Positions 5,327-23,773 of a stretch of 24,000 bases of DNA are shown piece after piece; the first letter of the stretch is position 1; each line of letters starts with the position of its first letter. The notes under the pieces were generated by a model. The model did not search any database and was not told where the DNA came from. It worked only from the letters and a program-made list of their open reading frames with translations. A program made the position numbers and the translations under genes. This DNA comes from an uncultured Bacteroidales bacterium (GTDB lineage: Bacteria > Bacteroidota > Bacteroidia > Bacteroidales > UBA10428), in contig CAZWIU010000010.1 in assembly GCA_964634105.1 (NCBI GenBank), positions 1 to 24,000 on the forward strand. The letters run 5' to 3'.

Positions 5327-5331
5327 CCTGT

Positions 5332-8768: not shown

Positions 8769-9410
8769 ATGAAAAAGTTTTGTGCAATTACACCTACGCG
8801 GGGCGACCGGCCTCTATTCCTGGAACACTGTAAAATGCAAATGCAAAAACAGACAGTGCTGCCAGGCGATCATTTTATAATCGATTACCCGGCCCGATCA
8901 GGCGATTTCGACCTGGTTGAGAGATATCAGCAGGGCATAGCCCTGGCCATGTCAAAAGGCTATGATATTGTTTATTTTATCGAAGATGATGACTACTATC
9001 CGGATGACTATTTCGAACGCATGGACATTGGTAAGAACGATATTATCGGGCTTCCCTATACCTGGTATTATCATTTGGATACCAGGTCATATATACGCAT
9101 GAACCACCCCGGACGCTCATCCATGTTCTGCACAGGGCTTCGTATTTCCCGGTTTATGGATTTTGACTGGCCCGATAAGCTGACAATTTTTGTTGATATA
9201 CTGTTATGGAAACACCTGGCTTTACAGCGCTTTGAAATGATAGCTCCTTTCCCTATCGGGATAAAGCACAGCGCCGGACTTCGTGCCGGTAATGGCCATA
9301 ATCTTAACTTCCCGTTTACAGCTTCTGATCCAGGGTGTGATTGGTTAAAACATCACGTGAGGCCAGAATCATTTGAGTTTTATATGAACTATAAACAGGA
9401 GAATGCATGA
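8769..9410 (+). CDS. GT-A fold glycosyltransferase-like protein (DxD type)
   Basis: N-terminal ITPTRGDRP strand-loop followed by YDIVYFIEDDDYYP (EDDD 8982-8993). This is typical of GT-A nucleotide-sugar transferases. Substrate unknown. Confidence 0.55.
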   Translation: MKKFCAITPTRGDRPLFLEHCKMQMQKQTVLPGDHFIIDYPARSGDFDLVERYQQGIALAMSKGYDIVYFIEDDDYYPDDYFERMDIGKNDIIGLPYTWYYHLDTRSYIRMNHPGRSSMFCTGLRISRFMDFDWPDKLTIFVDILLWKHLALQRFEMIAPFPIGIKHSAGLRAGNGHNLNFPFTASDPGCDWLKHHVRPESFEFYMNYKQENA

Positions 9411-9682: not shown

Positions 9683-10207
9683 ATGCATAAAGAACAACGC
9701 GAATTCTGCGAACAAGTAAAAGAAAAGTTCCCGGAATATTTTACACAGAGCCGTGTAATTGATTTCGGTTCGCTCGATGTTAATGGAAACAATCGGTATT
9801 TATTCGATACGAGCTGCACTTATACAGGGGTTGATCTTGGCCCCGGTAAAAACGTTGATGTGGTCCTCTCAGCTCACCTGTTCACCCCGGAGCCAGGCTT
9901 TGAACCCGATGTCATTATCAGCACCGAAATGCTGGAACACGACAGGAACTGGGATCGGAGTCTCAGAAATATGCTGCACATGCTGAAACGTGGCGGCCTG
10001 ATTATAGTCACCTGTGCCACCGATGACCGTGAGGAACACGGAACCAGGGAACACAACCCACAGGATTCACCCTATACAAACGACTATTATCGCAACGTAA
10101 GCCTTTCAGAATTTAAGAAAGCTATCCACTGTGAATTAAAATTCCTGATACAATTTGAGATACGAAGGACGAAAAATGATTTACAATTCTGGGGGATAAA
10201 GCAATGA
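9683..10207 (+). CDS. Class I SAM-dependent methyltransferase
   Basis: Motif I VIDFGSLDVNG, post-I GVDLGPG, DVIISTEMLEHD and LKRGGLIIVT follow the Rossmann-fold MTase motif series. Confidence 0.8.
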   Translation: MHKEQREFCEQVKEKFPEYFTQSRVIDFGSLDVNGNNRYLFDTSCTYTGVDLGPGKNVDVVLSAHLFTPEPGFEPDVIISTEMLEHDRNWDRSLRNMLHMLKRGGLIIVTCATDDREEHGTREHNPQDSPYTNDYYRNVSLSEFKKAIHCELKFLIQFEIRRTKNDLQFWGIKQ

Positions 10208-10350
10208 AAAGTAAACCGATACAATGTGCTATTAGTGATTGGAGTTGTGTATATCATGCATGCATGACTGACCATTGCCAGAAGCATGAAGTATTGAAGC
10301 GCGTTACTTTAGCCGAATCTGGCGAACCAAAATGTAAAATAAAACTATGA
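10204..10350 (+). CDS. Small Cys/His-rich protein (48 aa), possible zinc-binding module
   Basis: Hand translation: MKSKPIQCAISDWSCVYHACMTDHCQKHEVLKRVTLAESGEPKCKIKL. ATGA overlap at both ends (10204-10207 and 10347-10350). Confidence 0.5.
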   Translation: MKSKPIQCAISDWSCVYHACMTDHCQKHEVLKRVTLAESGEPKCKIKL

Positions 10351-10769
10351 ATATAAAGGAATTCATTGCTTATATCCTGAATGATAAAAGCAATAAGCAT
10401 ATCAAACTTAATTTGGGAATAGTTCCAAGATCACAAGCTGAGAAAATAAAAAACATTACCGGCCTTAATGTTTTAGGTTATACTTCCCTGATTGATAATT
10501 ATGCAGTAAAACATACATTGGAGGAACATGGCACTGCTTCAGAAATCAAGCGCGGACAGGTTCCGGTAACACCTGAATGTTTTGAATTAATTCCAACCAT
10601 TTTGAGCAGCCCCGATAAAATAACAGACGGCGGATTAAGTGCAATAGGCCGTAGGGTAATTGTATTCAGCAAGCGGATAAACGGCATTGTGATTTATGTT
10701 GAAGAAGTAAGGACTAAGAGAAAAGAACTTGCACTACTTACTATGTACATTAAAAAAGCCCGCTGTTAA
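10347..10769 (+). CDS. Hypothetical protein; possibly a barnase/EndoU/RelE-like (PBECR-type) phage nuclease domain
   Basis: 140-aa ORF. NYAVKHTLEEHG ... VIVFSKRINGIVIYVEEVRTKRKELALLTMYIKK recalls the stand-alone domain found in polyvalent phage proteins. This is a memory-based call and the function is weakly supported. Confidence 0.6.
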   Translation: MNIKEFIAYILNDKSNKHIKLNLGIVPRSQAEKIKNITGLNVLGYTSLIDNYAVKHTLEEHGTASEIKRGQVPVTPECFELIPTILSSPDKITDGGLSAIGRRVIVFSKRINGIVIYVEEVRTKRKELALLTMYIKKARC

Positions 10770-11007: not shown

Positions 11008-11541
11008 ATGAAACAGCGCATTGTAAAATTTTTGGAATTTAATGGTAACAATCTTTATTTTCTTGATGTAAATGGAAAATACTGGATTGCGGTAAAACCT
11101 GTATGTGAGGCACTTAATATTGAATATACCCGTATATTCAAGAACCTGAAAACAGATCCTATACTAGCACCAAGATTGGCTAAACTGCCAATGATGATCC
11201 CCGGTGATACCCAGCCCAGAAAATATGTTTGCATTCCTGAATACTTGATCTATGGCTGGATTTTTTCAATTCAGAGCGATTCAAGGGAACTATTGTCATA
11301 TAAGCTAGAATGTTACGAAGTATTATTTAATCACTTTCACGGAGCTATTACCGGACGCACTGATTTATTACGCGATAAGGCCAGACTTGTAACAGAAAGA
11401 CTAAGGCTTGAAAACAGCCTGAAACAATTACCGGAATATAAGCAACTGGAACAAATTAAAATTGAAGAATCGCGCATTGGGAAAGCGCTTGTGCGCAATG
11501 ATAACGAGATCATCAATCTTCAGCTCGAACTCTTTCAATGA
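11008..11541 (+). CDS. Phage antirepressor-like protein (P22_AR N-terminal domain type)
   Basis: YWIAVKPVCEALNIEY ... QPRKYVCIPEYLIYGWIFSIQSDS...YKLECYEVLFNHF parallels the conserved blocks of the P22 Ant N-terminal domain. C-terminal coiled coil. Confidence 0.7.
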   Translation: MKQRIVKFLEFNGNNLYFLDVNGKYWIAVKPVCEALNIEYTRIFKNLKTDPILAPRLAKLPMMIPGDTQPRKYVCIPEYLIYGWIFSIQSDSRELLSYKLECYEVLFNHFHGAITGRTDLLRDKARLVTERLRLENSLKQLPEYKQLEQIKIEESRIGKALVRNDNEIINLQLELFQ

Positions 11542-12188
11542 CCGATAATAAAATATTTCCCTATCTTTGTGGAGCTAGATTCATTAAAATTTTAGAAGCT
11601 CGTTCCTCAAATGAGACTGATAAAAAGGTACAGGAGCGGCATACCGGTGTAAGTCCGGCAGTCCTATCTGAGCTTCGCTTTGATGAGTCTAGCAGTGACC
11701 GCTCCCTTTTGTTTCATGAAAATGCTAGACTTATGGACACAAACAAGCCCTTTTCCATTTACATCGTTGAACGTAAAGATTGGTTCCAATCCAGCCAGTG
11801 CGTAATTATCGAACAAACCAGGAGCGACAGCAGTACGCTTTTTGGTTTAGGCACAATTACTGAACAGATCAGGTTAACCCCGCAGCAGCTGCTATCCCTT
11901 AAAAAAGAGATTGACAGGCTGCTTGATTTTCTTTTTCCCCAGGAGCGTGAACTACGTAAACCTCGTATTGGCCTTGTTAAGGTTTATTCACGCAACTGGC
12001 TTCAAAGCGAAATGAACCGGTTGTTAAAACTGGAACGTTACGAAGATGCTGAAGCGCTCAAATATTTGATCCGCATTATTTCTGACACTGAAAAGAGCAA
12101 ACCAAATGAAAACAATACATGTGCTGGGAACCGGCCCAGGAATAAAAAATTACAAGTACAGCGGGAACATAAGGATAGGTGTGAATGA
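11538..12188 (+). CDS. Hypothetical protein
   Basis: 216-aa ORF, ATGA-coupled to the antirepressor gene (11538-11541). Its last 27 codons overlap the next gene. Confidence 0.65.
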   Translation: MTDNKIFPYLCGARFIKILEARSSNETDKKVQERHTGVSPAVLSELRFDESSSDRSLLFHENARLMDTNKPFSIYIVERKDWFQSSQCVIIEQTRSDSSTLFGLGTITEQIRLTPQQLLSLKKEIDRLLDFLFPQERELRKPRIGLVKVYSRNWLQSEMNRLLKLERYEDAEALKYLIRIISDTEKSKPNENNTCAGNRPRNKKLQVQREHKDRCE

Positions 12189-12633
12189 TATATTTAAGTA
12201 CCAGCCGGTTGAATACCTACTGCTTATGGACAATATAGAAACCTTCCCGCAGGATCGGTTAAAGACGATTATCGATTCTACGCCGCTTCAAACATTCTCA
12301 CAGCTTAGTGAATGGAACTTCATGCCCGGATTTACACCAATCGGACTGAATAAAACACCTGGTGATATTTCATCCCTGGGATCTATGAACTATTTACCCC
12401 GGCATGTTGATAGTACATTTACAGCAGTTTGTATAGCATACTGCTTGGGGGCCAAAAAGGTTGTCATGTATGGGGTGGAATTTTGCGGTCATCCTGTGCT
12501 TAGTAAGTATTCAGATAAGATTCTTGAATGCTATGAGAAACTATATAAGGCCCTTCTTATAAAGGGCTGCAATCTGTGCGTAGCTTCTCACAATAGTTTA
12601 TTAAGCGAAGTGATGCCGGTAGAGGTAATGTAA
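12106..12633 (+). CDS. Rossmann-like protein with a GNGPS-type N-terminus (DUF115/Maf-like or CstII-type glycosyltransferase-like)
   Basis: MKTIHVLGTGPGIKNY...IGVNDIF...LLLMDN resembles the (I/V)xGNGPS...N/D...D start of DUF115/MptE-like and GT42 enzymes. Followed by a good terminator. Confidence 0.55.
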   Translation: MKTIHVLGTGPGIKNYKYSGNIRIGVNDIFKYQPVEYLLLMDNIETFPQDRLKTIIDSTPLQTFSQLSEWNFMPGFTPIGLNKTPGDISSLGSMNYLPRHVDSTFTAVCIAYCLGAKKVVMYGVEFCGHPVLSKYSDKILECYEKLYKALLIKGCNLCVASHNSLLSEVMPVEVM

Positions 12634-12702
12634 TGCTGCTTTATTCAATGAAATGAGTTATTTTTAATTACTTTTTTATAATAATCGTCTTATAATTTTT
12701 TA

Positions 12703-12730
12703 CCGTCGGAGAAATCCGGCGGTTTTTTTT
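12703..12730 (+). terminator. Intrinsic terminator closing the early/modification operon
   Basis: CCGTCGGA-gaaa-TCCGGCGG (one mismatch) followed by T8 (12723-12730). Confidence 0.7.
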
Positions 12731-12777
12731 ATATGTGCAAAGTACATTTTTTTAGTTTGCAGTATACCCGTTTTTTA

Positions 12778-13270
12778 TGTTAACGTGTTAAGAGAGCCTT
12801 GTAATTAATTGAATAATAATAAAATAAGCCTTAACATAAACTACATTTTTACGTTAAGATCGTGTTAAGAAGTGTTAAGATTATGATTAACAAATCATTA
12901 CCCTGTAAGCATTGATTTTACTAACGTTAACGTGATATCAAAATTCTGAATGTGTTGGTATTACTTAAGTTGCGGGTAAAAAAAGACTCTTAACCCTTTT
13001 ATTCAGGAAAGTCGATTTATGTTAAGACCTTATTCATTGTGACACAGTTCGTTACAGGGAGTCGTTAACACGTTAACACGAAATTTGACATTGCTGAGAA
13101 AGGGGTATTTTAGCATTTTATCATTTTCCTGGATCAAAAAAAGTGTTCGAAATAGTGCATGTAACTGTTAAAAAAGTGATAGCGGACCTTATCTTTTTAT
13201 ATTATGGTATATACCCCAAGAAAAAATCAACTTTTTGCCAACTTTTCATTAACTATTTTTTCGTTAACAG
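12778..13270. repeat. Iteron-like array: 11 copies of the octamer (C/T)GTTAA(C/G)(A/G)
   Basis: TGTTAACG 12778; TGTTAAGA 12786, 12863, 12873, 13020; CGTTAAGA 12852; CGTTAACG 12925; CGTTAACA 13063, 13071 (tandem) and 13262; reverse copy at 12829-12836. Three copies at 12852-12880 are spaced about 10 bp apart. No ORF over 23 codons in 12634-13413. Confidence 0.75.
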
Positions 13271-13413
13271 ATTGATTTTTAATAAATAACCAATTCATTG
13301 CTGAATTTCCGATTTTAACTTTTCATCAACTATTGAAAAAGTGAATAAATACTTCAGGTGATTCGTTGTATTTCATTCTGATTCCTTGCATTTTTCATGG
13401 AAATAATTAGCTT

Positions 13414-13632
13414 ATGGAAGGATTATTCATAACTACATCCGATATCCAGCTGATCCATAATTGCTGTTCCAAAACTGCACAAAAAAAGATGCAGCTTATC
13501 AGGGAAGTCCTTTGTAAAAAACCGCATCAGAAAGTAACTATTAAAGAATACTGCGATTTTGAAGGGATCGGTATGGAAGATTTCCAGGAGAAAAAAGCCG
13601 AACTATACCGAATCAATAAGCAGGCCAGGTAA
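13414..13632 (+). CDS. Small DNA-binding protein (excisionase/MerR-like HTH type common in Bacteroidota mobile elements)
   Basis: ITTSDIQLIHNCCSKTAQKKMQLIREVLCKKPHQKVTIKEYCDFEGI fits the pattern of short HTH regulators (T..d...i.g.s..tA.r....ir..l.K...q.vTi.eyc.y). It is the first gene after the iteron gap and sits directly upstream of the virion block. Confidence 0.55.
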   Translation: MEGLFITTSDIQLIHNCCSKTAQKKMQLIREVLCKKPHQKVTIKEYCDFEGIGMEDFQEKKAELYRINKQAR

Positions 13633-13664: not shown

Positions 13665-13695
13665 AACATTTGCATTCATACAACGCGCAAATGTT
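13665..13695. promoter_or_regulatory. Perfect 9-bp inverted repeat covering the start codon of the first virion-block gene
   Basis: AACATTTGC (13665-13673) - 13 nt - GCAAATGTT (13687-13695). The ATG at 13691 lies inside the right arm. Confidence 0.5.
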
Positions 13696-14134
13696 TCGGA
13701 AATTAGTACCTTTTTTGCTTCTGGGCGGCGTAGCGGCTGCATTTCTTCTTACGGCTAAAAAGCTTAAGAAACTGGATACAGCCGTTACCCGCCTGCAATA
13801 TAAAAGTCTTTCCCTCACTACAATCCGCTTTGAACTCGACCTGGCCGTTACTAATCCTGGCCAGCAATCAGTAAACATACAGGAGATTGAGCTTGCCTTG
13901 GTATACCGAGGCGACACAATGGCCTCAATGAAAAAGACGGGTATTAATATTCCTGTAGGCGCCGAGAAGACAATTAAAATCACAAACATCACCGCAGATG
14001 TAAGCACATTAAGCGCCCTGAGCCAAATTCTTTCGGCGTTCCTGGGGGACACCGCCAAAACAATGACTGTAAGCGGAACAATCAAAGCCGACGGCTTTAG
14101 CTATCCGGTAAACGAGACAATAAATATTTCGTGA
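13691..14134 (+). CDS. Membrane-anchored LEA_2 / NDR1-HIN1-like domain protein
   Basis: The ORF-track start at 13670 is TTG; the ATG at 13691 gives MFRKLVPFLLLGGVAAAFLLTA (TM anchor). The remainder (FELDLAVTNPGQQSVNIQEIELALVYRGDTMA...IPVGAEKTIKI...VSGTIKADG) follows the LEA_2 beta-sandwich pattern. Confidence 0.6.
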   Translation: MFRKLVPFLLLGGVAAAFLLTAKKLKKLDTAVTRLQYKSLSLTTIRFELDLAVTNPGQQSVNIQEIELALVYRGDTMASMKKTGINIPVGAEKTIKITNITADVSTLSALSQILSAFLGDTAKTMTVSGTIKADGFSYPVNETINIS

Positions 14135-14135
14135 T

Positions 14136-14411
14136 ATGAGTACCAAAAAAACAAATAAGCCTGCAACAAAAATACAGGACAAGACAAAGCCCGCAGCTAA
14201 AGCCCAGGGTGAAAAAGCAACACGAGCCATTCCGGAAATTGAACCTATACGGACAGTGTACGATCCAAAGAACCGGGAAGTGATCATCGAACGCAGGGGT
14301 GAAAAATACCGGGTCAGAAAACCCCGTACTGCTTTTGAAAGTCCCTGGCTGAGCAAAGCCACAGCTGAAAAGGTATTCAATGTTAAAGCCAATTGTTCGC
14401 AGAATCAATGA
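14136..14411 (+). CDS. Small highly basic protein (candidate nucleic-acid-binding virion protein)
   Basis: 91 aa, about a quarter Lys+Arg by my count (MSTKKTNKPATKIQDKTKPAAKAQ...RRGEKYRVRKPR). Its stop overlaps the next ATG as ATGA (14408-14411). Confidence 0.7.
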   Translation: MSTKKTNKPATKIQDKTKPAAKAQGEKATRAIPEIEPIRTVYDPKNREVIIERRGEKYRVRKPRTAFESPWLSKATAEKVFNVKANCSQNQ

Positions 14412-16099
14412 ATAAGAACAGCTCACATACAATCCCTCCCTGGGTTAAAAATGTCTGGTTTGGGACAAACGACCTGGTCACTATAGCCAATAAAACAATA
14501 CGCCCGGCTGCAGCAAGTGATAAGCTGATAAAACTTAATTATAATACGGATGATATTATTGCGCTCATTCAGAATGCACATAAAAAGGGACTTGCCGATA
14601 CAAAGCTGTTTGCTTCCATGATACCAGGGAATTCTGTGGCTGTTTATTGTTCCAATCTCTGGCATTTTTTAAAAGATAACATTCGCTACCAGGTCGATCC
14701 GGTTGGTGATCAGTGGGTGAAATCTCCGGCCCGTGTCTGGTATGATAAGGTATGCGATTGTAAAAGCTTTGCAATCTTCGTGGGTACTGTACTGGCAAAC
14801 AAGGGGATCCCGTTTAAGTACCGTTTTGTATCCTTCAATCCCGATAATCCCATGGTCACGCATGTGTATGTTATAGTGATGCTGGGTAGCCGTGACTATT
14901 TACCAATGGATGTTGTATACCATTCATTTAACGCTGAAAAACCATTTTATCATAAAAAAGATATCATCATGGCAGGACTTCATTATTTGGCTGGCATAGG
15001 CAAGGCCACAGAAAAGATTTTTAACCTGGGCAACAAAGATATTTCACAAATTACAGACGGTGAGATGGATTTACTAATTGCCCGCGACAGGATGGAAACA
15101 GAAAAGGCGCTCGTCGAGAAAATACGAGGAATAGGATCCATTAAAGCAGAGCGATACCAGGATTCAATTGATATGCTCGACGATGCAATATCCGCAGTAA
15201 ATGCTTATCAAACCGGCAAGATCGGTGATATCGATACGGAACTTGCGTTAATATCTAACCAGGCCAGCCGGGGTGAATACCGTATGGCCGACCAGGTAGC
15301 AGGTATTGGTACGTTGCCTGGAAGGCAGGCATATCGTATGAAAAGACGAAAGCAATTGCAGGCAAAGCGGAGCGCCATAAAACGTAAACTTACTCCAGCC
15401 CAGAAAGCGAATATCTGGGGTATCCCGGAACTTTCCGGCATAGGTAAAACAAAGGGATTGCTTAAAAAAGTGGCTGGAAAAGTGAAAACAGCGACTAAGA
15501 AAATAGCAAAAGGAACTGCTAAAGTTGTAAAGACAGCCGTGAAGGTTGTAACTGCGCCGGCCCGATTGGTAGCAAAAGGAATTCTGGAAATTACATTACC
15601 CAAAGCATCTCCTTTCTTCTTATACCTGTTTATTAATGACCAGGCAATTCTCAATAAGGCTCCGGATAAGGTAAGGCAGAAACGTAAGAAAGCGGAGAAC
15701 GTTGCCAATTTCATTGTAAATGGTATCGGTATGAAGCGGGAACATTTCATGGGCATTGTCCGCAACGGCAATCTGAAACACTATGGAAAACAGCCCGAAA
15801 AGGTCATCGATGAAATGATGAAGGGAAAAGTATCCGGGATCGGGGTGATAGGAGCTGCCATTACAGCAGTAACAGAAATCATCACCAAGATACTCCAACT
15901 GGTAAAGAAAAACAAAACAAAAGACCTGGACATTAGCGCTGCTGATGGCCCGGACGCATCCGACTGGGCGAATCTGAGCAGCTCGGAAAAATCTGATCTG
16001 GGAAATGAAATTAAGTCCCAGGCTGATGACAGCGGAACCGATGGGGAAGGGCCATACGATACAGGAGGAAAATCCATCTGGGATTCCTTCGGAGGATAG
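14408..16099 (+). CDS. Large multi-segment virion protein: N-terminal transglutaminase-like Cys-His-Asp domain, six [LIV]xGIG motifs, Lys-rich segment, hydrophobic segment, acidic tail
   Basis: The ORF-track start at 14393 is TTG; the ATG at 14408 is ATGA-coupled. VCDCKSFAIFVGTVLANKGIPFKYRFVSF....THVYVIV......LPMDV matches the transglutaminase-like core (Cys codons 14753-14755 and 14759-14761, His 14861-14863, Asp 14909-14911). GIG motifs at 14993, 15128, 15302, 15437, 15722 and 15836. Confidence 0.85.
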   Translation: MNKNSSHTIPPWVKNVWFGTNDLVTIANKTIRPAAASDKLIKLNYNTDDIIALIQNAHKKGLADTKLFASMIPGNSVAVYCSNLWHFLKDNIRYQVDPVGDQWVKSPARVWYDKVCDCKSFAIFVGTVLANKGIPFKYRFVSFNPDNPMVTHVYVIVMLGSRDYLPMDVVYHSFNAEKPFYHKKDIIMAGLHYLAGIGKATEKIFNLGNKDISQITDGEMDLLIARDRMETEKALVEKIRGIGSIKAERYQDSIDMLDDAISAVNAYQTGKIGDIDTELALISNQASRGEYRMADQVAGIGTLPGRQAYRMKRRKQLQAKRSAIKRKLTPAQKANIWGIPELSGIGKTKGLLKKVAGKVKTATKKIAKGTAKVVKTAVKVVTAPARLVAKGILEITLPKASPFFLYLFINDQAILNKAPDKVRQKRKKAENVANFIVNGIGMKREHFMGIVRNGNLKHYGKQPEKVIDEMMKGKVSGIGVIGAAITAVTEIITKILQLVKKNKTKDLDISAADGPDASDWANLSSSEKSDLGNEIKSQADDSGTDGEGPYDTGGKSIWDSFGG

Positions 16100-16158
16100 T
16101 ACACAGTCCCCGGACTGTTGTATCCGGGATCATATATGTCAAACTAAAATTTTGAGAA

Positions 16159-16347
16159 ATGGCAAAACTTAAAATGCTTAAGTACCCCCGGAAACCAAAA
16201 GCGGGGGCCAGTGTGGCCACAATGGAAAGGTGGCTGAAACGAAAGGCTGAGATCGACCGGGAAAATTCCCGTCGAAAGAGCCAGAATAAAAAGGCTGAAA
16301 CGCTGCGGAAACGCATCAGCGGAATAAGCAGATGTGCAACCTATTAA
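16159..16347 (+). CDS. Very basic 62-aa protein (candidate DNA-condensing/core protein)
   Basis: About one third Lys+Arg by my count (KYPRKPK...WLKRKAEIDRENSRRKSQNKKAETLRKR). C-terminal ISGIS (16321-16329) resembles the GIG motif. Confidence 0.65.
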   Translation: MAKLKMLKYPRKPKAGASVATMERWLKRKAEIDRENSRRKSQNKKAETLRKRISGISRCATY

Positions 16348-16355
16348 TTACTATT

Positions 16356-16748
16356 ATGGCAAAGAAATTTGATTTCAAACGAATCGCTATGAAAGCAACC
16401 GGCGCTGCCAGTGGCGGTGCTGTGGCTTTAGCATCAAATAAGGTGCTTGGTAAATTCAATCCAAAGATCCGGGCTATCGCGAAGATAGCTGCGGGAGCTA
16501 TACTTCCGGAGATTGCTCCAAAATCTTCCTTTGTAAATGATATGGGTTGTGGTATGATCGGGGCCGGAGCTGCTGAGTTAACCGAAGCGCTGGTTCCTGC
16601 TCTGGCCGGTGAAACAGTATCCGGGATAGGTGAAGACAAAGGCTATGTCATTGATGAAGAATACAGCCTCGAAGGGATCGCTGCTGATCCTTCAAAGGAG
16701 GATAACCCCGTGCTGGGGGATATTCCTTCTGATGTTGAAGACTGGTAG
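16356..16748 (+). CDS. Gly/Ala-rich hydrophobic protein with acidic C-terminal tail
   Basis: The ATG at 16356 (MAKKFDFK) lies 8 nt after the upstream stop; an alternative ATG at 16332 overlaps that gene. ATGAASGGAVALAS...IAAGAILPEIA...GMIGAGAAELTEALVPALAG, then VSGIG (16623-16631), then EDKGYVIDEEY...DVEDW. Confidence 0.7.
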   Translation: MAKKFDFKRIAMKATGAASGGAVALASNKVLGKFNPKIRAIAKIAAGAILPEIAPKSSFVNDMGCGMIGAGAAELTEALVPALAGETVSGIGEDKGYVIDEEYSLEGIAADPSKEDNPVLGDIPSDVEDW

Positions 16749-16829
16749 TCTCAGCCTCTTAGATAAAAGGTACTAATTCTCAGAAACGTATTGCGCCATT
16801 AAGAGAATAGTCACTAAAAAAAGAGAAAA

Positions 16830-17612
16830 ATGAAGACTTTTATTAAAATCATTGCTTTTACAGGTTTGATCATTGCCTGTTTTGTACTCCAGGGTGCTTT
16901 CGATTGTAACGCAGTTTTTGGAGCACTACATGACACGTTATCCATCGATAATCTTACCGTTGCCGGTTCAGCTGTTATTGGTATAGGGGCTTTCAGGGAC
17001 AGGGCCATTTTTAAAGGTCTCCGGAATCAATTTCCCGGAACTGTTCCCCAGCCGGGATCCTACCTTCGTATTGAACAGGTGCTAAGTAATAGCAGCGGTA
17101 AATATGAATTCCGTTTAAAAAAGACTAACACAGAAAAAATACAGGAGGTTAAACTTGAACAAAACGACATTTTTGTCATCACTGACCTGGCTGTATACCT
17201 TCTGAAAGCAGATACCACAAAGGAGGGCAAGGATGTACTTCAGACGTTTGTCAACCAACAGGTTTTCCCTGCCGTTACCGGTTTTACTCCGGGACACCTG
17301 GAAGCTATATATAACGGAAAACTAAGCCTGAAAGTCGGACAGATCAATCATATCGAAAACCTCTCTATGCAGTATTTCAGGAATGTTCCTGAAACACAGC
17401 AGTCGGCAGGAACTAACCTTTCGGAATATGACATTAAAAACGCTGTCTATCCGCTGGGTTCAAACCTGAATTTGCGGGGGAATGATGATGTGATTGTAAC
17501 AATCGAATTCCCAACATTCACCGGGATGCAGATTGCTGCTGTCGCTGCTAATACTGAACACAGGATCGTATTCCATCCATACGGTTATTTAATGCGCAAC
17601 GCTGCTAAGTAG
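16830..17612 (+). CDS. Abundant-looking beta-rich virion protein (candidate major capsid/coat component) with lipoprotein-type signal peptide
   Basis: MKTFIKIIAFTGLIIAC has n- and h-regions and a lipobox (L-I-I-A-C, Cys17). VIGIG at 16980-16988. The rest alternates short beta-like stretches. It is followed by the strongest terminator in the window. The capsid assignment is inference only. Confidence 0.75.
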   Translation: MKTFIKIIAFTGLIIACFVLQGAFDCNAVFGALHDTLSIDNLTVAGSAVIGIGAFRDRAIFKGLRNQFPGTVPQPGSYLRIEQVLSNSSGKYEFRLKKTNTEKIQEVKLEQNDIFVITDLAVYLLKADTTKEGKDVLQTFVNQQVFPAVTGFTPGHLEAIYNGKLSLKVGQINHIENLSMQYFRNVPETQQSAGTNLSEYDIKNAVYPLGSNLNLRGNDDVIVTIEFPTFTGMQIAAVAANTEHRIVFHPYGYLMRNAAK

Positions 17613-17639
17613 TTGTTTAATTGTAGGTCAGTTAGGGTT

Positions 17640-17677
17640 AATAAGCCGGGTTCGGCACGCTTGCCCGGCTTATTTTT
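17640..17677 (+). terminator. Strong intrinsic terminator after the 260-aa protein gene
   Basis: AATAAGCCGGG (17640-17650) pairs perfectly with CCCGGCTTATT (17664-17674), followed by a T-run to 17677. Confidence 0.8.
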
Positions 17678-17695
17678 CACTTAAAAATTACGTCA

Positions 17696-18082
17696 ATGGA
17701 TATAGTTCTGAATAATCTAGAAAATATTGAGCTGGTTGTAGACAATATAAATAAAACCAAGTTCAATTTCCCGGACATAGAAAACATCCGTGGGAAGAAA
17801 ATAAAAGTGATCGATATACCTTCAGTCAATGAAGTAACGGTTACACCCTTAGGGAAAGCCAATATCAACGACACAGTATATGGTAAGTCATTCCTTGTAT
17901 TGAATGTTGCCGGATCCGAAAAGATCAACCGTATCCCGCTTAAGAGCCTGAACCCTTTTGCCAATAATACCCGCTTGTTTTTTAACGACCTGGTAGTCGA
18001 TTGGACACGATCATACATCGAGGTAGGAAGCACAGCGGGCTTGGTGGCAAATGAAGCTTTCTTTCTGAATGTATTCTTTTAA
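17696..18082 (+). CDS. Small beta-rich virion protein
   Basis: 128-aa ORF in the virion block with an alternating hydrophobic pattern (KIKVIDIPSVNEVTVTPLG, SFLVLNVAGSEKINRIPL, EAFFLNVFF). No motif recognised. Confidence 0.7.
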   Translation: MDIVLNNLENIELVVDNINKTKFNFPDIENIRGKKIKVIDIPSVNEVTVTPLGKANINDTVYGKSFLVLNVAGSEKINRIPLKSLNPFANNTRLFFNDLVVDWTRSYIEVGSTAGLVANEAFFLNVFF

Positions 18083-18093
18083 CCTGAAATAAA

Positions 18094-18801
18094 ATGATCA
18101 TTGGCAGCGATAAAGTGATCGAGTGGTTAAGGACGAATGAAACACCTTACTGGCGGATCCTGAATACGGAAAAGGGCGGTGTGATATTCGAGGGATTGAA
18201 TAGTAAGGAAGAACTTACACTTAATGATTCGGTTACCCGTTTGGAGCAGGCATTGGCTATGCTAAGCGCGGGAACCTATTATATGGATGCCTGGGATAAG
18301 TTTAAAGCGTCGAACAATGACCGTTTTAAAACACGTTTTGTGATAACCGGAAATGAAAATCAAAATTCACCAGGTGGAATCGGTAATTTTCAGGGTATGG
18401 TCCCCCAGGCAAGTATCCAGGAACAGATAAAAAAGGCACTGGATGACTATAAACGCGACCAGGAGAACGAGAGGTTACGAACTGAAGTCAACCAGCTGAA
18501 TGAAGAAATCAACAACACATTCTACCGTGTTGTCAAAAGGCTGGAACCGGTGTTAGGGCTTGCAGGAGTTGCCATTGAGGATTTATACCCGGAAATGAAA
18601 CAGATCCGGATTACCGGGCCAAATCAGGATTTAAAAAGCGATGAAATGAATATCCAGGATCAGCAACGATTAGAAAATGCCTTTGAGTCATGGGGTAAAA
18701 AGGATTCCGATTGCATTACCCTGGTTGAAAAGATTGCCAGGCTTGCAGAAAGTGATCCGGCAACCTATGCCATGGCCAAAAAAATCTTAATGAGCAAATA
18801 A
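18094..18801 (+). CDS. Virion-block protein with central acidic coiled coil (scaffold-like)
   Basis: 235 aa. PGGIG at 18376-18384, followed by QEQIKKALDDYKRDQENERLRTEVNQLNEEINN. TAATG overlap with the next gene at 18799-18803. Confidence 0.75.
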   Translation: MIIGSDKVIEWLRTNETPYWRILNTEKGGVIFEGLNSKEELTLNDSVTRLEQALAMLSAGTYYMDAWDKFKASNNDRFKTRFVITGNENQNSPGGIGNFQGMVPQASIQEQIKKALDDYKRDQENERLRTEVNQLNEEINNTFYRVVKRLEPVLGLAGVAIEDLYPEMKQIRITGPNQDLKSDEMNIQDQQRLENAFESWGKKDSDCITLVEKIARLAESDPATYAMAKKILMSK

Positions 18802-19688
18802 TGGGATTCAAAAGCGATAGGATCAATAAGGCAGCTGTACCAAAGGGAACCAGCCTTAACTACAGGGAGAAGCCAACTACTTCATCCAAAATCCTGCATA
18901 CTTCGCAAGCGGGAAAATTTGCTGGAAGGACTACCGGGGATTATTTGGATCAGTCTGACGGTCGCTGGTGGCAGGTTATCCTTACGGGAACGAACGCACT
19001 TGCCTGGGTAAGGGAAGATGTTACCAGTTTTCAGAAACCGCCCAGTGATCCTGCATTAAATGAAAAGGATGTCCAGGGTATCGTTGATAAGCTGGTAAAC
19101 AATGATATTGAAGTATATCACTCGCTATTACGTTCCAGCGCTCTTTTAAAGGATGCTGCAGCAAAAGGTAAGGATGTATCATCCTTTCAGAAAGCACATG
19201 CTCAGCTCAATGCACGGCTGGAAGCCAGGCAGGATAAAATAAAAAACTCGAAGCTCTTATCCTGGAAAGAAGGAATAAAGAAAGGATATGAAAACCTTAA
19301 GAAGAGTTATATCAACTATGTAACAAGTCCTGAATATCATGCAGCCGCAATGATGAATGTTTACGGGATCGGCTCGATAACAGGTGTAGTGATTGGAGCT
19401 GTAATTGGCGCAGGTTTGATCGTAGGTGCTTATTTTGCTTTTAAACCGAAATATGATGAAAGCACTGCCGATTTAAAAATATCAAAAGATCTGGAAGCTG
19501 CCCTGGCGACATTAACGCCAGAAAAAGCAGCTGAAGTAAAAGCCGATCTTGAAAAACAAATCGATACCGCATACAACCAGGGAAAAACTGACCAGTTCAT
19601 ATCAACCAATCTCAAATGGATTGGCTTTGCAGCTTTGGGGTTCTTTGGGATAAGCTTTTTGATGAATCAAAGCAGAAGGAATGAATGA
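18801..19688 (+). CDS. SH3b-like domain protein with two transmembrane helices
   Basis: LNYREKPTTSSKILHTSQAGKF...DGRWWQVILTGTNALAWVREDV fits the bacterial SH3 pattern. VYGIG (19365-19373) directly precedes the TM helix SITGVVIGAVIGAGLIVGAYFAF. Second TM: WIGFAALGFFGISFLM. Confidence 0.75.
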   Translation: MGFKSDRINKAAVPKGTSLNYREKPTTSSKILHTSQAGKFAGRTTGDYLDQSDGRWWQVILTGTNALAWVREDVTSFQKPPSDPALNEKDVQGIVDKLVNNDIEVYHSLLRSSALLKDAAAKGKDVSSFQKAHAQLNARLEARQDKIKNSKLLSWKEGIKKGYENLKKSYINYVTSPEYHAAAMMNVYGIGSITGVVIGAVIGAGLIVGAYFAFKPKYDESTADLKISKDLEAALATLTPEKAAEVKADLEKQIDTAYNQGKTDQFISTNLKWIGFAALGFFGISFLMNQSRRNE

Positions 19689-20277
19689 GCAGCAATTTAT
19701 CAATACATTCTGGCCCTATGCAAAACAGGTGCAAACCAAATACAGGATACCTGCATTAGTGGCACTGGCGCAAGCTGCTCTTGAATCGGGCTGGGGAAAA
19801 TCAACACCTGGCCATATGCTTTTCGGGATTAAAGCAGGATCTTCATGGAAGGGAGAGAAGCAATTGTTAACTACCTCCGAGTATCATGACACAAACACCG
19901 TTAAATACCCGGAGATAATCTCGATAGAAAAGCTGGATACCGGCCGGTATAAATACAAGGTAAAGACCTGGTTCCGTAAATACAATTCATTTGCAGAAAG
20001 CTTTGATGATTATGGAAAACTACTTTCCGGATCCGAAAGGTATAAAAACGCATTCACCTATTCGGATCCTTACAAGTTTGCTGCTGAAATAGCAAAAGCA
20101 GGATACTCAACATCAAAAGATTATTATACTCAACTGGCAAAAATAATCAACGGGCTACAGAAAGAAAGCCCGACGAATCAATACATAAAAGCAATTGCAG
20201 CAGGTGTAATGCTGGGGTTGGTAATAAACTTAAAAGATCAACACGACTATGCGAAAGCCAATAGGAGTAAGCTATAA
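19681..20277 (+). CDS. GH73 N-acetylglucosaminidase-type peptidoglycan hydrolase with C-terminal hydrophobic segment
   Basis: IPALVALAQAALESGWGKS....MLFGIKA is the glucosaminidase (FlgJ/GH73) signature (catalytic Glu codon 19783-19785). C-terminal IKAIAAGVMLGLVINL. ATGAATGA overlap with the upstream gene. Confidence 0.85.
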   Translation: MNEQQFINTFWPYAKQVQTKYRIPALVALAQAALESGWGKSTPGHMLFGIKAGSSWKGEKQLLTTSEYHDTNTVKYPEIISIEKLDTGRYKYKVKTWFRKYNSFAESFDDYGKLLSGSERYKNAFTYSDPYKFAAEIAKAGYSTSKDYYTQLAKIINGLQKESPTNQYIKAIAAGVMLGLVINLKDQHDYAKANRSKL

Positions 20278-20521
20278 AACCGAGCTGATAACAGAAAGTC
20301 AGCAGGTAAACCCTGAAAAGTGTTCCTGTATTTCATTCGAAAATATAGGAAAGGATAATGCTACCATTAACAATGATATTCCCTGTAACCCGGACAATGT
20401 GCCGCGTGAATTCAATAATGACACCAACTGCATTATCCAGGATAGTTTTATGCTGAAATTTTCCGGAAGCTCAGCTGATATGCGAATCCTGGTAATAAAA
20501 ACCTTTTATAATACTATATAG
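20249..20521 (+). CDS. Hypothetical protein
   Basis: 90-aa ATG-initiated ORF overlapping the GH73 gene end by 29 nt. No motif recognised. Confidence 0.55.
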   Translation: MRKPIGVSYKTELITESQQVNPEKCSCISFENIGKDNATINNDIPCNPDNVPREFNNDTNCIIQDSFMLKFSGSSADMRILVIKTFYNTI

Positions 20522-20522
20522 T

Positions 20523-20768
20523 ATGGCATTCGATAGCAAACTCATAGAGCTGAACCTGAAGGCGGATCTGGTCGATGTAGTAAGCGATACCCTCATATAT
20601 GAAGGATTTTTCCTGCCCGGTAAGAGTGGTTATACTGATCCGGTATGTAAGATTGTACGCCGCCAGCAAACAGGAACCGTCTGGGCCACCATGTATGCCG
20701 ACGGTGATGAGAATTACGACAACGTCTGGAATAACAGGGCAGCCTTAAGCTATTCACATTTAATTTAA
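20523..20768 (+). CDS. Hypothetical small protein
   Basis: 81-aa ORF starting 2 nt after the previous stop. Confidence 0.65.
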   Translation: MAFDSKLIELNLKADLVDVVSDTLIYEGFFLPGKSGYTDPVCKIVRRQQTGTVWATMYADGDENYDNVWNNRAALSYSHLI

Positions 20769-20774
20769 TGATAT

Positions 20775-22598
20775 ATGCCGGCAAAATATGATCCCTTCAG
20801 TGGCCGCTTATATCTTCTGCCGTCAATTAAGGCCGATGATATCGATGACCAGGCAATCACTGAAGAAAAACTCAATACAAATGTCACGAGTAAACTGCTA
20901 AATTTCGGGAGTGCTTTCTCTCTCGAAGAAATCGGCGAATTTGATACTCTGAAAAAGTCTCATTACAATGCCCTGGCTATCCATGCCGTGAATGGTTCTA
21001 CCCCTTGCTGTTATTACTATGAAGGAACATATAAACGGTTCTATTTCACCTATTATGGATCCTACAAGGATGCTGCCGGTACAAATAAAACAGCCGGGAA
21101 GTATGTAAACTATGTAGCTTACTATGATCTTCAAACCGAAGTATTATCGCGGGATGTTGAAATTCCACACGGTTTTCCAACCAGTACAGATCAGCACAAT
21201 ATACCAACCCTGATAGTGGCCGATGATGGACACATTCTATTATTCCAGGAATCGCTTTTGCCCTCCGGGGCGCATAACAGTTCAATCGAAGTATGGCGAT
21301 CAAATGCAGCTGAAACCATCGAAGATCCTTCTAGTCCTGGAACACATTATTTTACAAAAGTTGCCGATTTCGGATACCCGATAACCGGTACATACCGGAT
21401 CTCGTATCCTAAAATTATAAAGGGATCTGCAACTGGTGAATTATTTATGCAGGCCCGTGGATACGATGCTGCTAATGGTCACTCAAACCTTGTATTTGCT
21501 AAATCAATCGATAATGGCCAGAACTGGACTGATCTTTCGGGCAATGCAAATCTTTTTACTCTGGTTGGCGATTGCAACCCAACCTTTGACGATTGTGACT
21601 GGTATTTTTATTCTACCTCAATGATCGCTCCCAGGACAGCCGGGTTAAATGTGCTAACCTATTGCAATGAAGGGCCAACAGGAACCAATACAACCAGTGG
21701 CCAGGCTGCTGCCTCTCGTTATAAGACGATGCACTATCTATATAGCACTGATGGAATCACCTGGGGGAATATTGTATGGAAAAATTCTGCCGGTGCATCC
21801 GGGTTTAGTAAGAATATTCTTACCTCAGGAGCTATCACCAGGGCAGAATTAGATGCTAATTTCCTTGTTTACGATGCTAACCCTGTTCAGAATGTAAGTT
21901 TAACGCCTTTTAGTACCGGTGTCGACTCAGCCGGAAATCCTTATATCTTATGGCAATATTTCACCAGGCCGGTCACCAAAACAGGGGATGCAAAAAACCT
22001 GCTGAATGTTTATTTTACCTACCATAATGGGACTACCTGGATACATGTCGATATCAGCTCCCTGGTGCTTACAAAAAATAATATTCCGGATAGCATCCCT
22101 TCGATCTATTATAACCGTGGCGATATGATAGCCTATTCGCCTGGTCACATAGATATTATGCTATATCGTTATGTAGGTAAGGAAAATGTCAACCTTAAGA
22201 AGTATAGCGCGATTAGTTCCGATGCGGACCGTGTTATCGGTGGAATTTATATTGTTAATACAACACAGACAGATCATTTTGGCACAGGTATAATTGCCGG
22301 CGATATCATACAAATTACAGCTTCGACACCCTCATGCGATGCAAATAATACCTTGCTGGCATTCGATACCGAGTTTGTTATTTATCGTACCCAGAATTAC
22401 GGACTATCGTGGCAGCTTTATAAACGTTTACTGCAAAAAAGCGATTCGCTGTTCGGTATGAATTCAAATAATGCAGCGATCAATTTCAATTACCTGGACA
22501 GTAAAAAGCTGGCTCTTTTGCTTGGGATCCCTGCTTCATATAATGGGACGGCTTTAACACACATGTATTTTAAGTTATTCTATGGTCAAATCGATTAG
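20775..22598 (+). CDS. BNR/Asp-box repeat (sialidase-like beta-propeller) protein; candidate receptor-binding spike or fibre
   Basis: Asp-boxes SIDNGQNW (21504-21527) and STDGITW (21744-21764), plus degenerate TQNYGLSW. At 607 aa it is the largest late ORF and sits just upstream of the lysis genes. Confidence 0.75.
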   Translation: MPAKYDPFSGRLYLLPSIKADDIDDQAITEEKLNTNVTSKLLNFGSAFSLEEIGEFDTLKKSHYNALAIHAVNGSTPCCYYYEGTYKRFYFTYYGSYKDAAGTNKTAGKYVNYVAYYDLQTEVLSRDVEIPHGFPTSTDQHNIPTLIVADDGHILLFQESLLPSGAHNSSIEVWRSNAAETIEDPSSPGTHYFTKVADFGYPITGTYRISYPKIIKGSATGELFMQARGYDAANGHSNLVFAKSIDNGQNWTDLSGNANLFTLVGDCNPTFDDCDWYFYSTSMIAPRTAGLNVLTYCNEGPTGTNTTSGQAAASRYKTMHYLYSTDGITWGNIVWKNSAGASGFSKNILTSGAITRAELDANFLVYDANPVQNVSLTPFSTGVDSAGNPYILWQYFTRPVTKTGDAKNLLNVYFTYHNGTTWIHVDISSLVLTKNNIPDSIPSIYYNRGDMIAYSPGHIDIMLYRYVGKENVNLKKYSAISSDADRVIGGIYIVNTTQTDHFGTGIIAGDIIQITASTPSCDANNTLLAFDTEFVIYRTQNYGLSWQLYKRLLQKSDSLFGMNSNNAAINFNYLDSKKLALLLGIPASYNGTALTHMYFKLFYGQID

Positions 22599-22600
22599 TT

Positions 22601-23080
22601 ATGAAAGCTTTTTTCATTCAATATATAGTGAGCTTCTTTTCAAAGAAAGCGGTCAAACCGGCCCAGGCGAAGTTTTTCTATGTTGTGATCCTGTTTTCAT
22701 TATCCTGGCTAACTGTTTCCCAGGAGACAACTAAGAACAGGGTGGACCGTATCGGAAAAAAAGTTGAGAGGATCCCGGGTATAGTTCGCGAAAATAATCA
22801 GGCCCTGGCCATCGAATTATATACCGATGCTCAGCTTTATGCAGGGAATATAATTGGGGCTATTACCAGGGCGAATGAAGATGTATTGAATGAAATTGAC
22901 ATTACTGAGCGGCGCCGGAATCAGCTGATCGAACAAATGAATGCACGTTTTGACGGCCTGGTAAATGAGGTCGAACGGTTAAAAGAAATGCAGAAGATCA
23001 ACCAGGGATACGAGATCAAGAGCAGGAAAATAGGACAATTCAATAAAAACGGACATGAAATTTTCATTGTGGAGAAATAG
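22601..23080 (+). CDS. N-terminally membrane-anchored coiled-coil protein (i-spanin-like topology, unproven)
   Basis: FFYVVILFSLSWLTV hydrophobic segment, then a long helical region (RRRNQLIEQMNARFDGLVNEVERLKEMQKINQ). Adjacent to endolysin and holin candidates. Confidence 0.65.
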   Translation: MKAFFIQYIVSFFSKKAVKPAQAKFFYVVILFSLSWLTVSQETTKNRVDRIGKKVERIPGIVRENNQALAIELYTDAQLYAGNIIGAITRANEDVLNEIDITERRRNQLIEQMNARFDGLVNEVERLKEMQKINQGYEIKSRKIGQFNKNGHEIFIVEK

Positions 23081-23369
23081 AGGGATCCCCGAAGATCTTC
23101 TCATTAAAAAGTTCGATGAACTTCAGGATAAGATAATAAAAGAACTTACTGAAGTAGTAGCTTACTACAAGGCATTTATTACCCGTATGCCATGCGAAGC
23201 AAATCAAAAGCTATTAAACCAGCTTAATGAAAGGGTAAAAGCCCTGGAATACCAGGAATTAAATGAACGTGTGACAAATCTTGAAAAATTATGCAACCTC
23301 GAACAATCAGCGAAAACCTCTCGTACCGGGAAGTCACGCACTCAGACACGGCAGTCCGTGCAGGAATAG
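23055..23369 (+). CDS. Hypothetical coiled-coil protein
   Basis: 104-aa ORF (KFDELQDKIIKELTEVVAYYKAF...LNERVKALEYQELNERVTNLEKL). Its last 79 nt overlap the M15 peptidase gene. Confidence 0.55.
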   Translation: MKFSLWRNRGIPEDLLIKKFDELQDKIIKELTEVVAYYKAFITRMPCEANQKLLNQLNERVKALEYQELNERVTNLEKLCNLEQSAKTSRTGKSRTQTRQSVQE

Positions 23370-23773
23370 AAAATACGCCCAGCCAGGAACAACTTGATAA
23401 TATAATCCTGTGGGCCATTCATATATTTGAACCGTTACGCAAGGGGCTTGGGGATAGGCCGGTATTTATTTCCAATATGTTCCGGAGCAAAAAGCTAAAT
23501 GAGCTTATACCAGGATCGGCCAAAACAAGTCAGCACATGGAAGGAAAAGCGGCCGATATCGACAACGACAATAATCCGCAAGGCCCGACCAATGCTGAAA
23601 TCTTTAACTATATCCTGGAATACCTGGAATTCGACCAGCTGATATGGGAGTATGGAACTGTCGAAAATCCTGCCTGGGTTCATGTGAGCTATAACCATGG
23701 TAAAAACCGGCGCCAGGTATTACGTTGTTCACTTGTAGATGGTAAACGTTGTTATTATCCTTATGTCGCTTAA
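23291..23773 (+). CDS. Peptidase M15 (LAS zinc metallopeptidase, M15_3-type) endolysin
   Basis: LSYREVTHSDTAVRAGIENTP...IFEPLR...FRSKKLNELIPGSAKTSQHMEGKAADID...WVHVSY. Zinc ligands follow Hx6D (His 23534-23536, Asp 23555-23557) plus a distal His (23681-23683). Confidence 0.9.
   Translation: MQPRTISENLSYREVTHSDTAVRAGIENTPSQEQLDNIILWAIHIFEPLRKGLGDRPVFISNMFRSKKLNELIPGSAKTSQHMEGKAADIDNDNNPQGPTNAEIFNYILEYLEFDQLIWEYGTVENPAWVHVSYNHGKNRRQVLRCSLVDGKRCYYPYVA

Follow-up and report, generated by a model that had tools for sequence, protein, structure and literature searches.

We analysed a 24,000-nucleotide stretch of DNA from an uncultured Bacteroidales bacterium (assembly GCA_964634105.1, contig CAZWIU010000010.1, positions 1 to 24,000; hereafter the window), in which plus-strand open reading frames (ORFs) spanning 13.4-23.8 kb form a late gene block (13691-23773). 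Taken as a whole, this block is best explained as the set of particle-assembly and lysis genes of a temperate virus without a tail that infects Bacteroidales, a reading to which we give a probability of roughly 60%, and the viral genome is probably a small circular double-stranded DNA (dsDNA) molecule of about 17-26 kb. An earlier note on this DNA had proposed that the content of the block is closer to that of tailless, internal-membrane phages than to that of tailed phages, or else represents a very divergent lineage, and this proposal gains computational support from the capsid matches of a 260-amino-acid (aa) protein, from the beta-sandwich model of a 128-aa protein, from the gene order found in related loci and from a polyprotein homolog in phage SSIP-1. 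All the evidence on the block is computational.

The features of the block are given below, with E standing for expectation value, pI for isoelectric point, K+R for lysine plus arginine and AF2 for AlphaFold2; the positions of the ORFs agree with the layout described in the earlier note.

12640..13410, no strand: gap without ORFs ahead of the late block, with clustered YGTTAASA repeats
13414..13632, + strand: 72-aa ORF at the head of the late block, putative late regulator, at the same position in 12 loci
13670..14134 (gene call start 13691), + strand: membrane-anchored LEA_2 protein (Pfam LEA_2, E 1.3e-7)
14136..14411, + strand: basic 91-aa protein, candidate DNA-binding core protein (pI 10.2, 24% K+R; homologs in 8 loci)
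14393..16099 (public gene calls start at 14408), + strand: 568-aa polyprotein with a protease domain and six G-I-G sites
16159..16347, + strand: basic 62-aa protein (pI 11.1, 32% K+R; homologs in 9 loci)
16332..16748, + strand: Gly/Ala-rich hydrophobic protein of 138 aa with G-I-G at aa 98 (homologs in 24 loci)
16830..17612, + strand: 260-aa candidate major capsid protein with a predicted single jelly-roll core at about aa 55-260 (AF2 and Foldseek)
17696..18082, + strand: 128-aa predicted eight-strand beta-sandwich, candidate second capsid protein or penton (AF2 model)
18094..18801, + strand: acidic 235-aa protein with G-I-G at aa 95, candidate scaffold or internal protein (homologs in 20 loci)
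18801..19688, + strand: 295-aa membrane protein with G-I-G just ahead of its first hydrophobic helix (hydrophobic segment aa 184-202)
19681..20277, + strand: GH73 glucosaminidase ending in a hydrophobic tail, candidate wall hydrolase of the virion (PF01832, E 4e-29)
20249..20768, + strand: small beta-rich proteins of 90 aa (homologs in 7 loci) and 81 aa (homologs in 4 loci), each a candidate for a vertex or adaptor role
20775..22598, + strand: BNR_4 beta-propeller, candidate receptor-binding spike in a variable slot (PF15892, E 2.8e-12)
22601..23369, + strand: two coiled-coil-rich proteins (159 and 104 aa) adjoining the lysis genes, found only in near-identical copies of the element
23291..23773, + strand: M15 peptidase endolysin (PF08291 Peptidase_M15_3, E 3e-13; phrog_894 endolysin, E 5.7e-25)

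Searches of the late ORFs against the Pfam, PHROGs and NCBIfam profile libraries returned no match to a terminase, portal, HK97 capsid, tape measure, sheath or baseplate protein, as the earlier note had anticipated when it recognised no tailed-phage hallmark gene in the block. LEA_2, GH73, BNR_4 and M15 were the sole family matches among the block ORFs, and the only PHROG match labelled "tail" fell on the lysin domain of the GH73 protein. The 72-aa ORF, the 90-aa and 81-aa proteins ahead of the spike and the 104-aa coiled-coil ORF had no family match in these libraries, while its 159-aa coiled-coil neighbour gave sub-threshold matches only, to DUF7615 (E 0.0015, below the cut-off) and phrog_5553 (E 0.0029). 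Comparison with 50,697 phage records gave nothing either for the block by megablast or for the 260-aa protein by tblastn. At the level of single genes, the earlier note had named a membrane-anchored LEA_2 protein, a Gly/Ala-rich hydrophobic protein, basic proteins, a GH73 lysin with a hydrophobic tail, a BNR spike candidate and an endolysin, all of which were recovered; the N-terminal hydrophobic helix of the LEA_2 protein lies at aa 11-29, and this protein is conserved in 12 loci. Its description of the 295-aa product as a two-helix SH3b protein held for the membrane protein, while the SH3 domain is no more than a sub-threshold hint, SH3_3 scoring 13 bits against a cut-off of 27 (E 0.094).

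The earlier note had seen no Walker A motif in any late ORF; strictly, the string GFFLPGKS in the 81-aa ORF (20523-20768) does fit GxxxxGK[ST], but its counterparts in homologs read GYFKPGAT and GFVNPGTV, and since the pattern is not conserved we regard it as a chance match, so that no canonical Walker A is left in the late genes. This ORF is also too small for an NTPase. That note had allowed for an ATPase beyond position 24,000, a suggestion that the flanking DNA does not bear out: in identical copies on public contigs, the bases past 24,000 encode a three-helix transmembrane (3-TM) holin (GTA_holin_3TM / phrog_3427, the next gene past the window end in locus L001), two small ORFs and then the host TPR and gyrA genes, with no canonical Walker A downstream of the window and no portal, terminase, HK97-fold or tail protein found in the block or downstream by profile search, nor by structure search of the two modelled proteins (260 and 128 aa). 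Among the relatives, L032 is a whole contig of 19,137 bp with a 28-nucleotide terminal direct overlap, found as the same contig in two samples; it carries no host gene, no integrase and no further large genes, and it is probably, judging from these features, a complete circular genome of this virus type. L032 has no terminase and no canonical Walker A, its sole Walker A pattern being antisense in a 108-aa ORF; the only such pattern in locus L010 is a chance match inside its polyprotein, and related elements of 17-19 kb contain no terminase, portal or tail genes. Since neither the downstream DNA nor L032 supplies hallmark genes or an ATPase, their absence is not an effect of the window edge, and the whole family is without the tailed-phage set and, as read from these genomes, without any canonical packaging ATPase. 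We also considered the primase-helicase as a substitute packaging motor; its replacement by a Rep_1-like protein in L010 makes this unlikely for the family.

Fold evidence for the 260-aa and 128-aa proteins, both of which the earlier note had put forward as beta-rich capsid candidates to be checked by structure prediction, favours jelly-roll capsid proteins without being conclusive, and lends no support to HK97. The AF2 model of the 260-aa protein (predicted local distance difference test, pLDDT, 72.9; predicted template-modelling score, pTM, 0.67) has an N-terminal helix followed by about eleven strands. A Foldseek search against 350,542 PDB chains gave nothing below E 0.001, and the matches were almost all viral jelly-roll capsid proteins, with Sulfolobus polyhedral virus 1 (SPV1) and P23-77 VP16/VP17 first and the coat proteins of SGIV, picornaviruses and bromoviruses lower in the list. 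The best was SPV1 6oj0 (E 7.7e-3, probability 0.89-0.95); another chain reached 0.95, with a template-modelling (TM) score of 0.51 on the target. Against BFVD, ten matches passed E 0.001 (best 1e-5), the named ones being capsid proteins of CRESS viruses and iridoviruses; the top match, I1ZBH9, has 211 aa, a length equal to that of SSIP-1 gp46. The 128-aa model is a confident eight-strand beta-sandwich (pLDDT 86.3, pTM 0.81), and the jelly-rolls in its list of non-significant matches are the coat proteins of CMV and CCMV, nucleoplasmin and PRD1 P3. HK97 folds were absent from the matches of both modelled proteins, and the two families showed no similarity to each other by hidden Markov model (HMM) and HHalign comparison.

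These results bear on the view that the element is a very divergent tailed phage (Caudoviricetes) whose terminase, portal, HK97 and tail genes have drifted beyond recognition. Most block proteins are indeed without a family assignment, and the repressor, antirepressor, primase, methyltransferases and lysis genes of the element are typical of temperate tailed phages. Only three late ORFs, however, exceed 280 aa, and these are the protease polyprotein, the two-helix membrane protein and the BNR propeller; the structural block is about 10 kb long, the probably complete 19-kb relative has no further large genes, and the two modelled proteins are beta-sandwiches matching capsid jelly-rolls rather than HK97. 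We therefore consider a disguised tailed phage very improbable.

The N-terminus of the 260-aa protein deserves separate mention. A lipobox had been read there in the earlier note, and this does not survive the comparison with homologs: the N-terminal extension is missing altogether from half of the 16 homologs, and the cysteine does not align. The hydrophobic extension (16830-17000, aa 1-55) is present in about half of the homologs with a variable sequence, it ends at a G-I-G tripeptide (aa 51-53), homologs without it start at that point, and in L016-L020 and L028 it carries ASGIGSGL. From its sequence, the extension resembles a membrane-targeting propeptide that can be cut off more than it does a lipoprotein signal.

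The 128-aa protein has a variant that is informative on its possible role. In L015-L020 and L022, its homolog is a tandem duplication of 268-311 aa (for instance L016 10726-11544), each half of which aligns over its full length with the single-domain form, and which may represent two covalently joined copies or a stage on the way to a double jelly-roll. Since the small capsid protein of P23-77 acts as a homodimer (PMC4958249), the fused pair would by analogy point to a capsomer role rather than a penton. The capsid arrangement of Bamfordvirae (Tectiviridae, Corticoviridae, Autolykiviridae) is not seen here, the 260-aa core measuring about 200 aa with one sandwich and the 128-aa protein being a single domain whose two-domain version is confined to some relatives.

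The 260-aa protein has only 16 word-indexed homologs among 5.8 billion proteins, one relative in GTDB genomes (in an uncultured Bacteroidales metagenome-assembled genome) and 22 metagenome loci, and an exhaustive profile search brought its family to 1,077 clusters at 50% identity, of which 664 had E <1e-10; all the clusters are 170-360 aa long, and those looked up had no informative name. Gene order is constant across about 25 loci, including L006, L007, L010, L032 and L033: a 72-aa ORF, a LEA_2-like membrane protein, a small basic protein, a transglutaminase-like polyprotein and a second small basic protein are followed by the Gly/Ala-rich, 260-aa, 128-aa and 235-aa families and the 295-aa membrane protein, and then by a wall hydrolase (GH73, GH108 or SLT), small beta-rich proteins and a large variable protein. 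The block is kept at divergence down to 21-40% identity and across many environments. Two of its slots are exchanged between relatives: where GH73 stands here, L007 has GH108 and L033 has SLT, and the spike slot holds unrelated large proteins, among them SprB/F5_F8_type_C in L006 and a pectate-lyase-like protein in L007.

Replication genes differ among the relatives. L007 and L033 encode primase-helicases, while L010 has no primase-helicase and instead combines a tyrosine integrase at its right end (17340-18497) with a weak Rep_1-like, rolling-circle protein (4551-5957). The virion block stays constant while the replication and integration modules beside it are swapped, and one may ask whether some members package single-stranded DNA.

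This conservation weighs on two other explanations. In one, the element is a satellite or a defective element for which a helper virus or a host translocase supplies DNA packaging or the capsid, as could be suggested by the lack of a packaging enzyme in the late genes and in L032, by the position of this copy against an insertion sequence (IS) transposase with no integrase in the sequence examined, and by the absence of the family from IMG/VR. Set against this, the whole block persists down to the same low identities in many environments with a capsid-like family of more than a thousand clusters, it brings its own spike, two wall hydrolases and a holin, and the elements have complete replication modules with no helper-related genes seen; we judge dependence on a helper unlikely. 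In the other, the block belongs to a non-viral integrative element encoding envelope or surface proteins, as envelope proteins of cells can likewise have LEA_2, BNR and lipoprotein-like signals. A repressor with an antirepressor, a primase-helicase, a holin-endolysin pair and an exchangeable spike slot all speak for a virus instead, one relative is a probably circular 19-kb genome and no conjugation genes are present, which makes a non-viral origin the least probable of the explanations that we considered.

The 568-aa polyprotein is the gene that links the block to a described phage. At its N-terminus (about aa 60-195), we predict a cysteine protease domain of the transglutaminase/LapG-like type, in which Asp-Cys, Thr-His-Val-Tyr and Asp are invariant in 14 relatives, Cys, His and Asp being also found in SSIP-1 gp34. 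The L007 homolog matches PF04473 (transglutaminase-like) with 28.1 bits against a cut-off of 20.5, and this family is also recorded for the polyprotein homologs of L032 and L033. A profile of the polyprotein family compared with PDB retrieved 4fgo (E 1.1e-4) and 4u65 ("putative cystine protease", E 0.056), both of which we take to be LapG, a calcium-dependent periplasmic cysteine protease. The profile match and the catalytic triad together argue for membership of the N-terminal domain in the transglutaminase-like/BTLCP (LapG) family. The only phage-database match of the ORF was SSIP-1 gp34, annotated as a "structural protein"; the tblastn match was weak (E 1e-3), and the link was confirmed by HMM comparison (E 2.9e-19) and by HHalign (97%), with the catalytic residues aligned. 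This is the sole phage-database homolog among block proteins without a Pfam family match.

Past the protease domain, six G-I-G sites separate acidic, very basic (pI 12.0 and 10.7) and hydrophobic segments of the polyprotein. In L014, L016, L018, L019 and L020, the homologs are longer (589-746 aa) and have an internally duplicated C-terminal part, the repeated unit running from a conserved AAPFFLYLFI segment to the last G-I-G site; Arg/Lys-rich runs are much longer in these duplicated polyproteins, as in the KRKAKRKARKAKRK repeats of L020.

The G-I-G tripeptide is concentrated in a few virion genes. It occurs ten times in the late proteins of the window and once in the early proteins: the polyprotein has six, all past its protease domain, and the 138-, 235-, 295- and 260-aa proteins have one each. 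Across relatives, four of these families have 6.0 G-[IV]-G motifs per 1000 aa, whereas other ORFs have 0.69 and composition would predict 0.96, and the sites follow the logo [IVLM]-[AS]-G-[IV]-G-[SA]-[IL]. Positional conservation was judged as presence in the same alignment column at 30-50% overall identity. In the polyprotein, the sites at aa 201, 246, 304 and 482 are kept in 10/14, 12/14, 10/14 and 13/14 relatives, respectively; the site at aa 189 of the 295-aa protein is kept in 8/9 and that at aa 98 of the 138-aa protein in 12/21, while the site at aa 95 of the 235-aa protein is kept within 12 columns in 7/14. The sites sit at domain borders: directly behind the protease domain, where acidic and very basic segments meet and directly before hydrophobic helices. 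Because the motif is both enriched and positionally conserved, we infer that G-[IV]-G motifs are maturation cleavage sites of the polyprotein's own protease.

The following mechanism would fit the gene set. The 260-aa jelly-roll capsid protein, and probably the 128-aa one, would form an icosahedral shell over an internal membrane holding the LEA_2, Gly/Ala-rich and 295-aa proteins together with the tail-anchored GH73 hydrolase. The 568-aa polyprotein would be incorporated into the particle, where its N-terminal LapG-like cysteine protease would cut at [IVLM]-[AS]-G-[IV]-G; its substrates would be the polyprotein itself, three further virion proteins and the capsid protein at its propeptide. 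Cleavage would free very basic peptides that, with the 91-aa and 62-aa basic proteins, would condense the DNA, and the genome would be enclosed by assembly around this condensed DNA rather than pumped in by a motor. The BNR protein would serve as an exchangeable receptor-binding spike, GH73 would aid entry, and M15 and the holin would bring about lysis. A case for such motor-free assembly has been made for FLiP and the ATPase-less Odin group (PMC5894146).

A particle without an icosahedral shell would also account for a missing packaging ATPase. The element could be a pleomorphic, vesicle-type membrane virus, similar to plasmaviruses or pleolipoviruses, with the beta-sandwiches serving as spikes or matrix proteins; its many membrane-associated proteins, the lack of an ATPase and the 128-aa model with no significant capsid match would all suit it. 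The best matches of the 260-aa model, though, are capsid jelly-rolls of icosahedral viruses, the element carries a full holin-endolysin cassette whereas vesicle-type viruses usually bud, and the homolog of its protease is a structural protein of the icosahedral phage SSIP-1. We consider such a virus improbable, to about the same degree as a satellite. No rival fits the conserved gene set as well as a tailless virus with a jelly-roll shell over a membrane.

Several observations nevertheless weigh against this interpretation. The fold scores of the 260-aa protein are weak (best PDB E 7.7e-3, TM 0.27-0.51, pLDDT 72.9), and the lowest E of any fold match of the 128-aa model is 0.15. Sequence profiles give no connection with any known capsid protein, SSIP-1 gp44-48 included: the 260-aa family profile gave only noise against PDB sequences, and a deep capsid-family profile of 170 sequences does not reach gp44-48. 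The window polyprotein itself matches Transglut_core only at E 0.012, below the cut-off. Cleavage is deduced from the motif; two polyprotein sites and the capsid-propeptide site are poorly conserved, and some motif copies adjoin glycine-rich helices and could be structural. A packaging enzyme of an unrecognised type may yet be encoded. The 260-aa protein has no relative in IMG/VR, and the virus itself is inferred from sequence. Finally, the left end of the element is interrupted by the IS transposase, and this copy may be defective.

Known viruses share parts of this picture. SSIP-1, which infects a Bacteroidetes host, has an internal membrane and no tail; it is reported to have two capsid protein types, possibly single jelly-rolls (PMC6356626, PMC6260650), and its Walker A protein gp40 is predicted to be the packaging ATPase (PMC4124505). 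Its gp34 shares Cys, His and Asp with the protease domain studied here, and its host belongs to a related phylum. Unlike our element, SSIP-1 has the Walker A protein and twice the genome size, its gp34 consists of one protease domain and a membrane tail and is no polyprotein, and G-[IV]-G is not enriched in it; HMM and HHalign comparison of all late families with all SSIP-1 proteins found no shared virion protein beyond gp34. In Helvetiavirae (P23-77, IN93, SH1, HHIV-2, SNJ1), two vertical single jelly-roll capsid proteins cover an internal membrane. The likeness lies in a large and a small beta-sandwich protein encoded side by side, in P23-77 VP16/VP17 being among the best 260-aa matches and in the tandem-duplicated 128-aa homologs, which would be a covalent version of the P23-77 small-protein homodimer. 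Several conserved block proteins carry hydrophobic helices, which would point to an internal membrane only indirectly. The signature ATPase of the FtsK/HerA-A32 type, on the other hand, was found neither in the block (by motif and families) nor in L032, the order here is large then small, there is no sequence similarity and the fold scores are weak.

SPV1 (Portogloboviridae), the best PDB fold match of the 260-aa model, has single jelly-roll capsid proteins, an internal membrane, a circular genome of about 20 kb, a condensed nucleoprotein core and no known packaging ATPase, and assembly without a motor has also been argued for it. It differs in its archaeal host, in the lack of sequence similarity and in having no known protease polyprotein. 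The proposed maturation resembles that of the cores of adenoviruses, African swine fever virus (ASFV) and poxviruses, in that a polyprotein and several virion precursors would be cleaved at short sites containing glycine, with basic, DNA-condensing peptides among the products; adenain cuts (M/I/L)XGX-G, and pS273R of ASFV cuts GG-X. The protease here is of the transglutaminase/LapG type with the order Cys-His-Asp, not of the adenain/Ulp1 type, and since the folds differ this likeness is one of analogy and not of homology. Among solved structures, the closest relatives of the N-terminal domain are the LapG/BTLCP proteins (4fgo, 4u65), with the same conserved Cys-His-Asp. LapG cuts beside small residues, at an Ala-Ala site; it is a periplasmic cellular enzyme that acts on an adhesin, whereas here the domain heads a viral polyprotein.

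The architecture class itself (tailless, with a membrane and jelly-roll capsid proteins) is already known, and literature searches found no description of this virus group. Four features appear to be new, namely the capsid-like family, the lack of an ATPase in a dsDNA phage of about 20 kb, the protease polyprotein with its motif, and the small capsid-like protein in single and duplicated forms. To our knowledge, few tailless phages with a membrane have been cultured and all known members of the single jelly-roll branch come from extremophiles (Thermus, haloarchaea, Salisaeta, Sulfolobus), and we know of no description of maturation by a protease polyprotein in prokaryotic viruses of this architecture. 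If our interpretation is true, a family found in Bacteroidales and in many metagenomes, and missed by virus-detection catalogues, would widen the single jelly-roll branch to ordinary habitats and add a virus of bacteria that has a dsDNA genome of about 20 kb and no packaging motor. The reading of the polyprotein gives directly testable predictions, in the form of cleavage sites and an active-site cysteine, and the occurrence of single and tandem-duplicated 128-aa forms in one family bears on the debated origin of double jelly-roll capsid proteins. The full combination, namely a widespread and unrecognised lineage of bacterial viruses with jelly-rolls over a membrane, no ATPase, dsDNA condensation through LapG-like polyprotein cleavage as an analogue of adenovirus/ASFV core maturation, and a fused small capsid protein as an intermediate towards the double jelly-roll, is a possibility that we hold tentatively, at somewhat less than even odds.

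The surroundings of the block are those of a temperate element. Upstream, the early region encodes a cI-type repressor on the minus strand, a DUF5906 primase-helicase and two methyltransferases, as well as a PBECR3 (Barnase/EndoU/RelE-like) nuclease and a P22 AR_N antirepressor (10347-10769 and 11008-11541), the last two occurring only in this element and not in its relatives. Left of base 1, where an integrase was expected, lies a 441-aa IS-type DDE transposase (DUF772 and DDE_Tnp_1; L004 11452-12774), which sits at the ends of two public contigs, those of L001 and L004. Rfam and tRNA scans of the window were empty. The gap ahead of the late genes (12640-13410, 771 bp) holds 12 of the 23 GTTAA[CG]/[CG]TTAAC hexamers of the window, in the context YGTTAASA and several of them in tandem; the equivalent gap in the closest relative, L006, has 13 and those of more distant relatives have none, and the array could be an iteron/origin or a regulator-binding array. 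Three early genes (8769-9410, 9683-10207 and 12106-12633), encoding a 213-aa protein with no family match, a Methyltransf_23 protein and a 175-aa protein with no family match, travel together in L006, L016 and L018-L020, and may form a conserved modification module.

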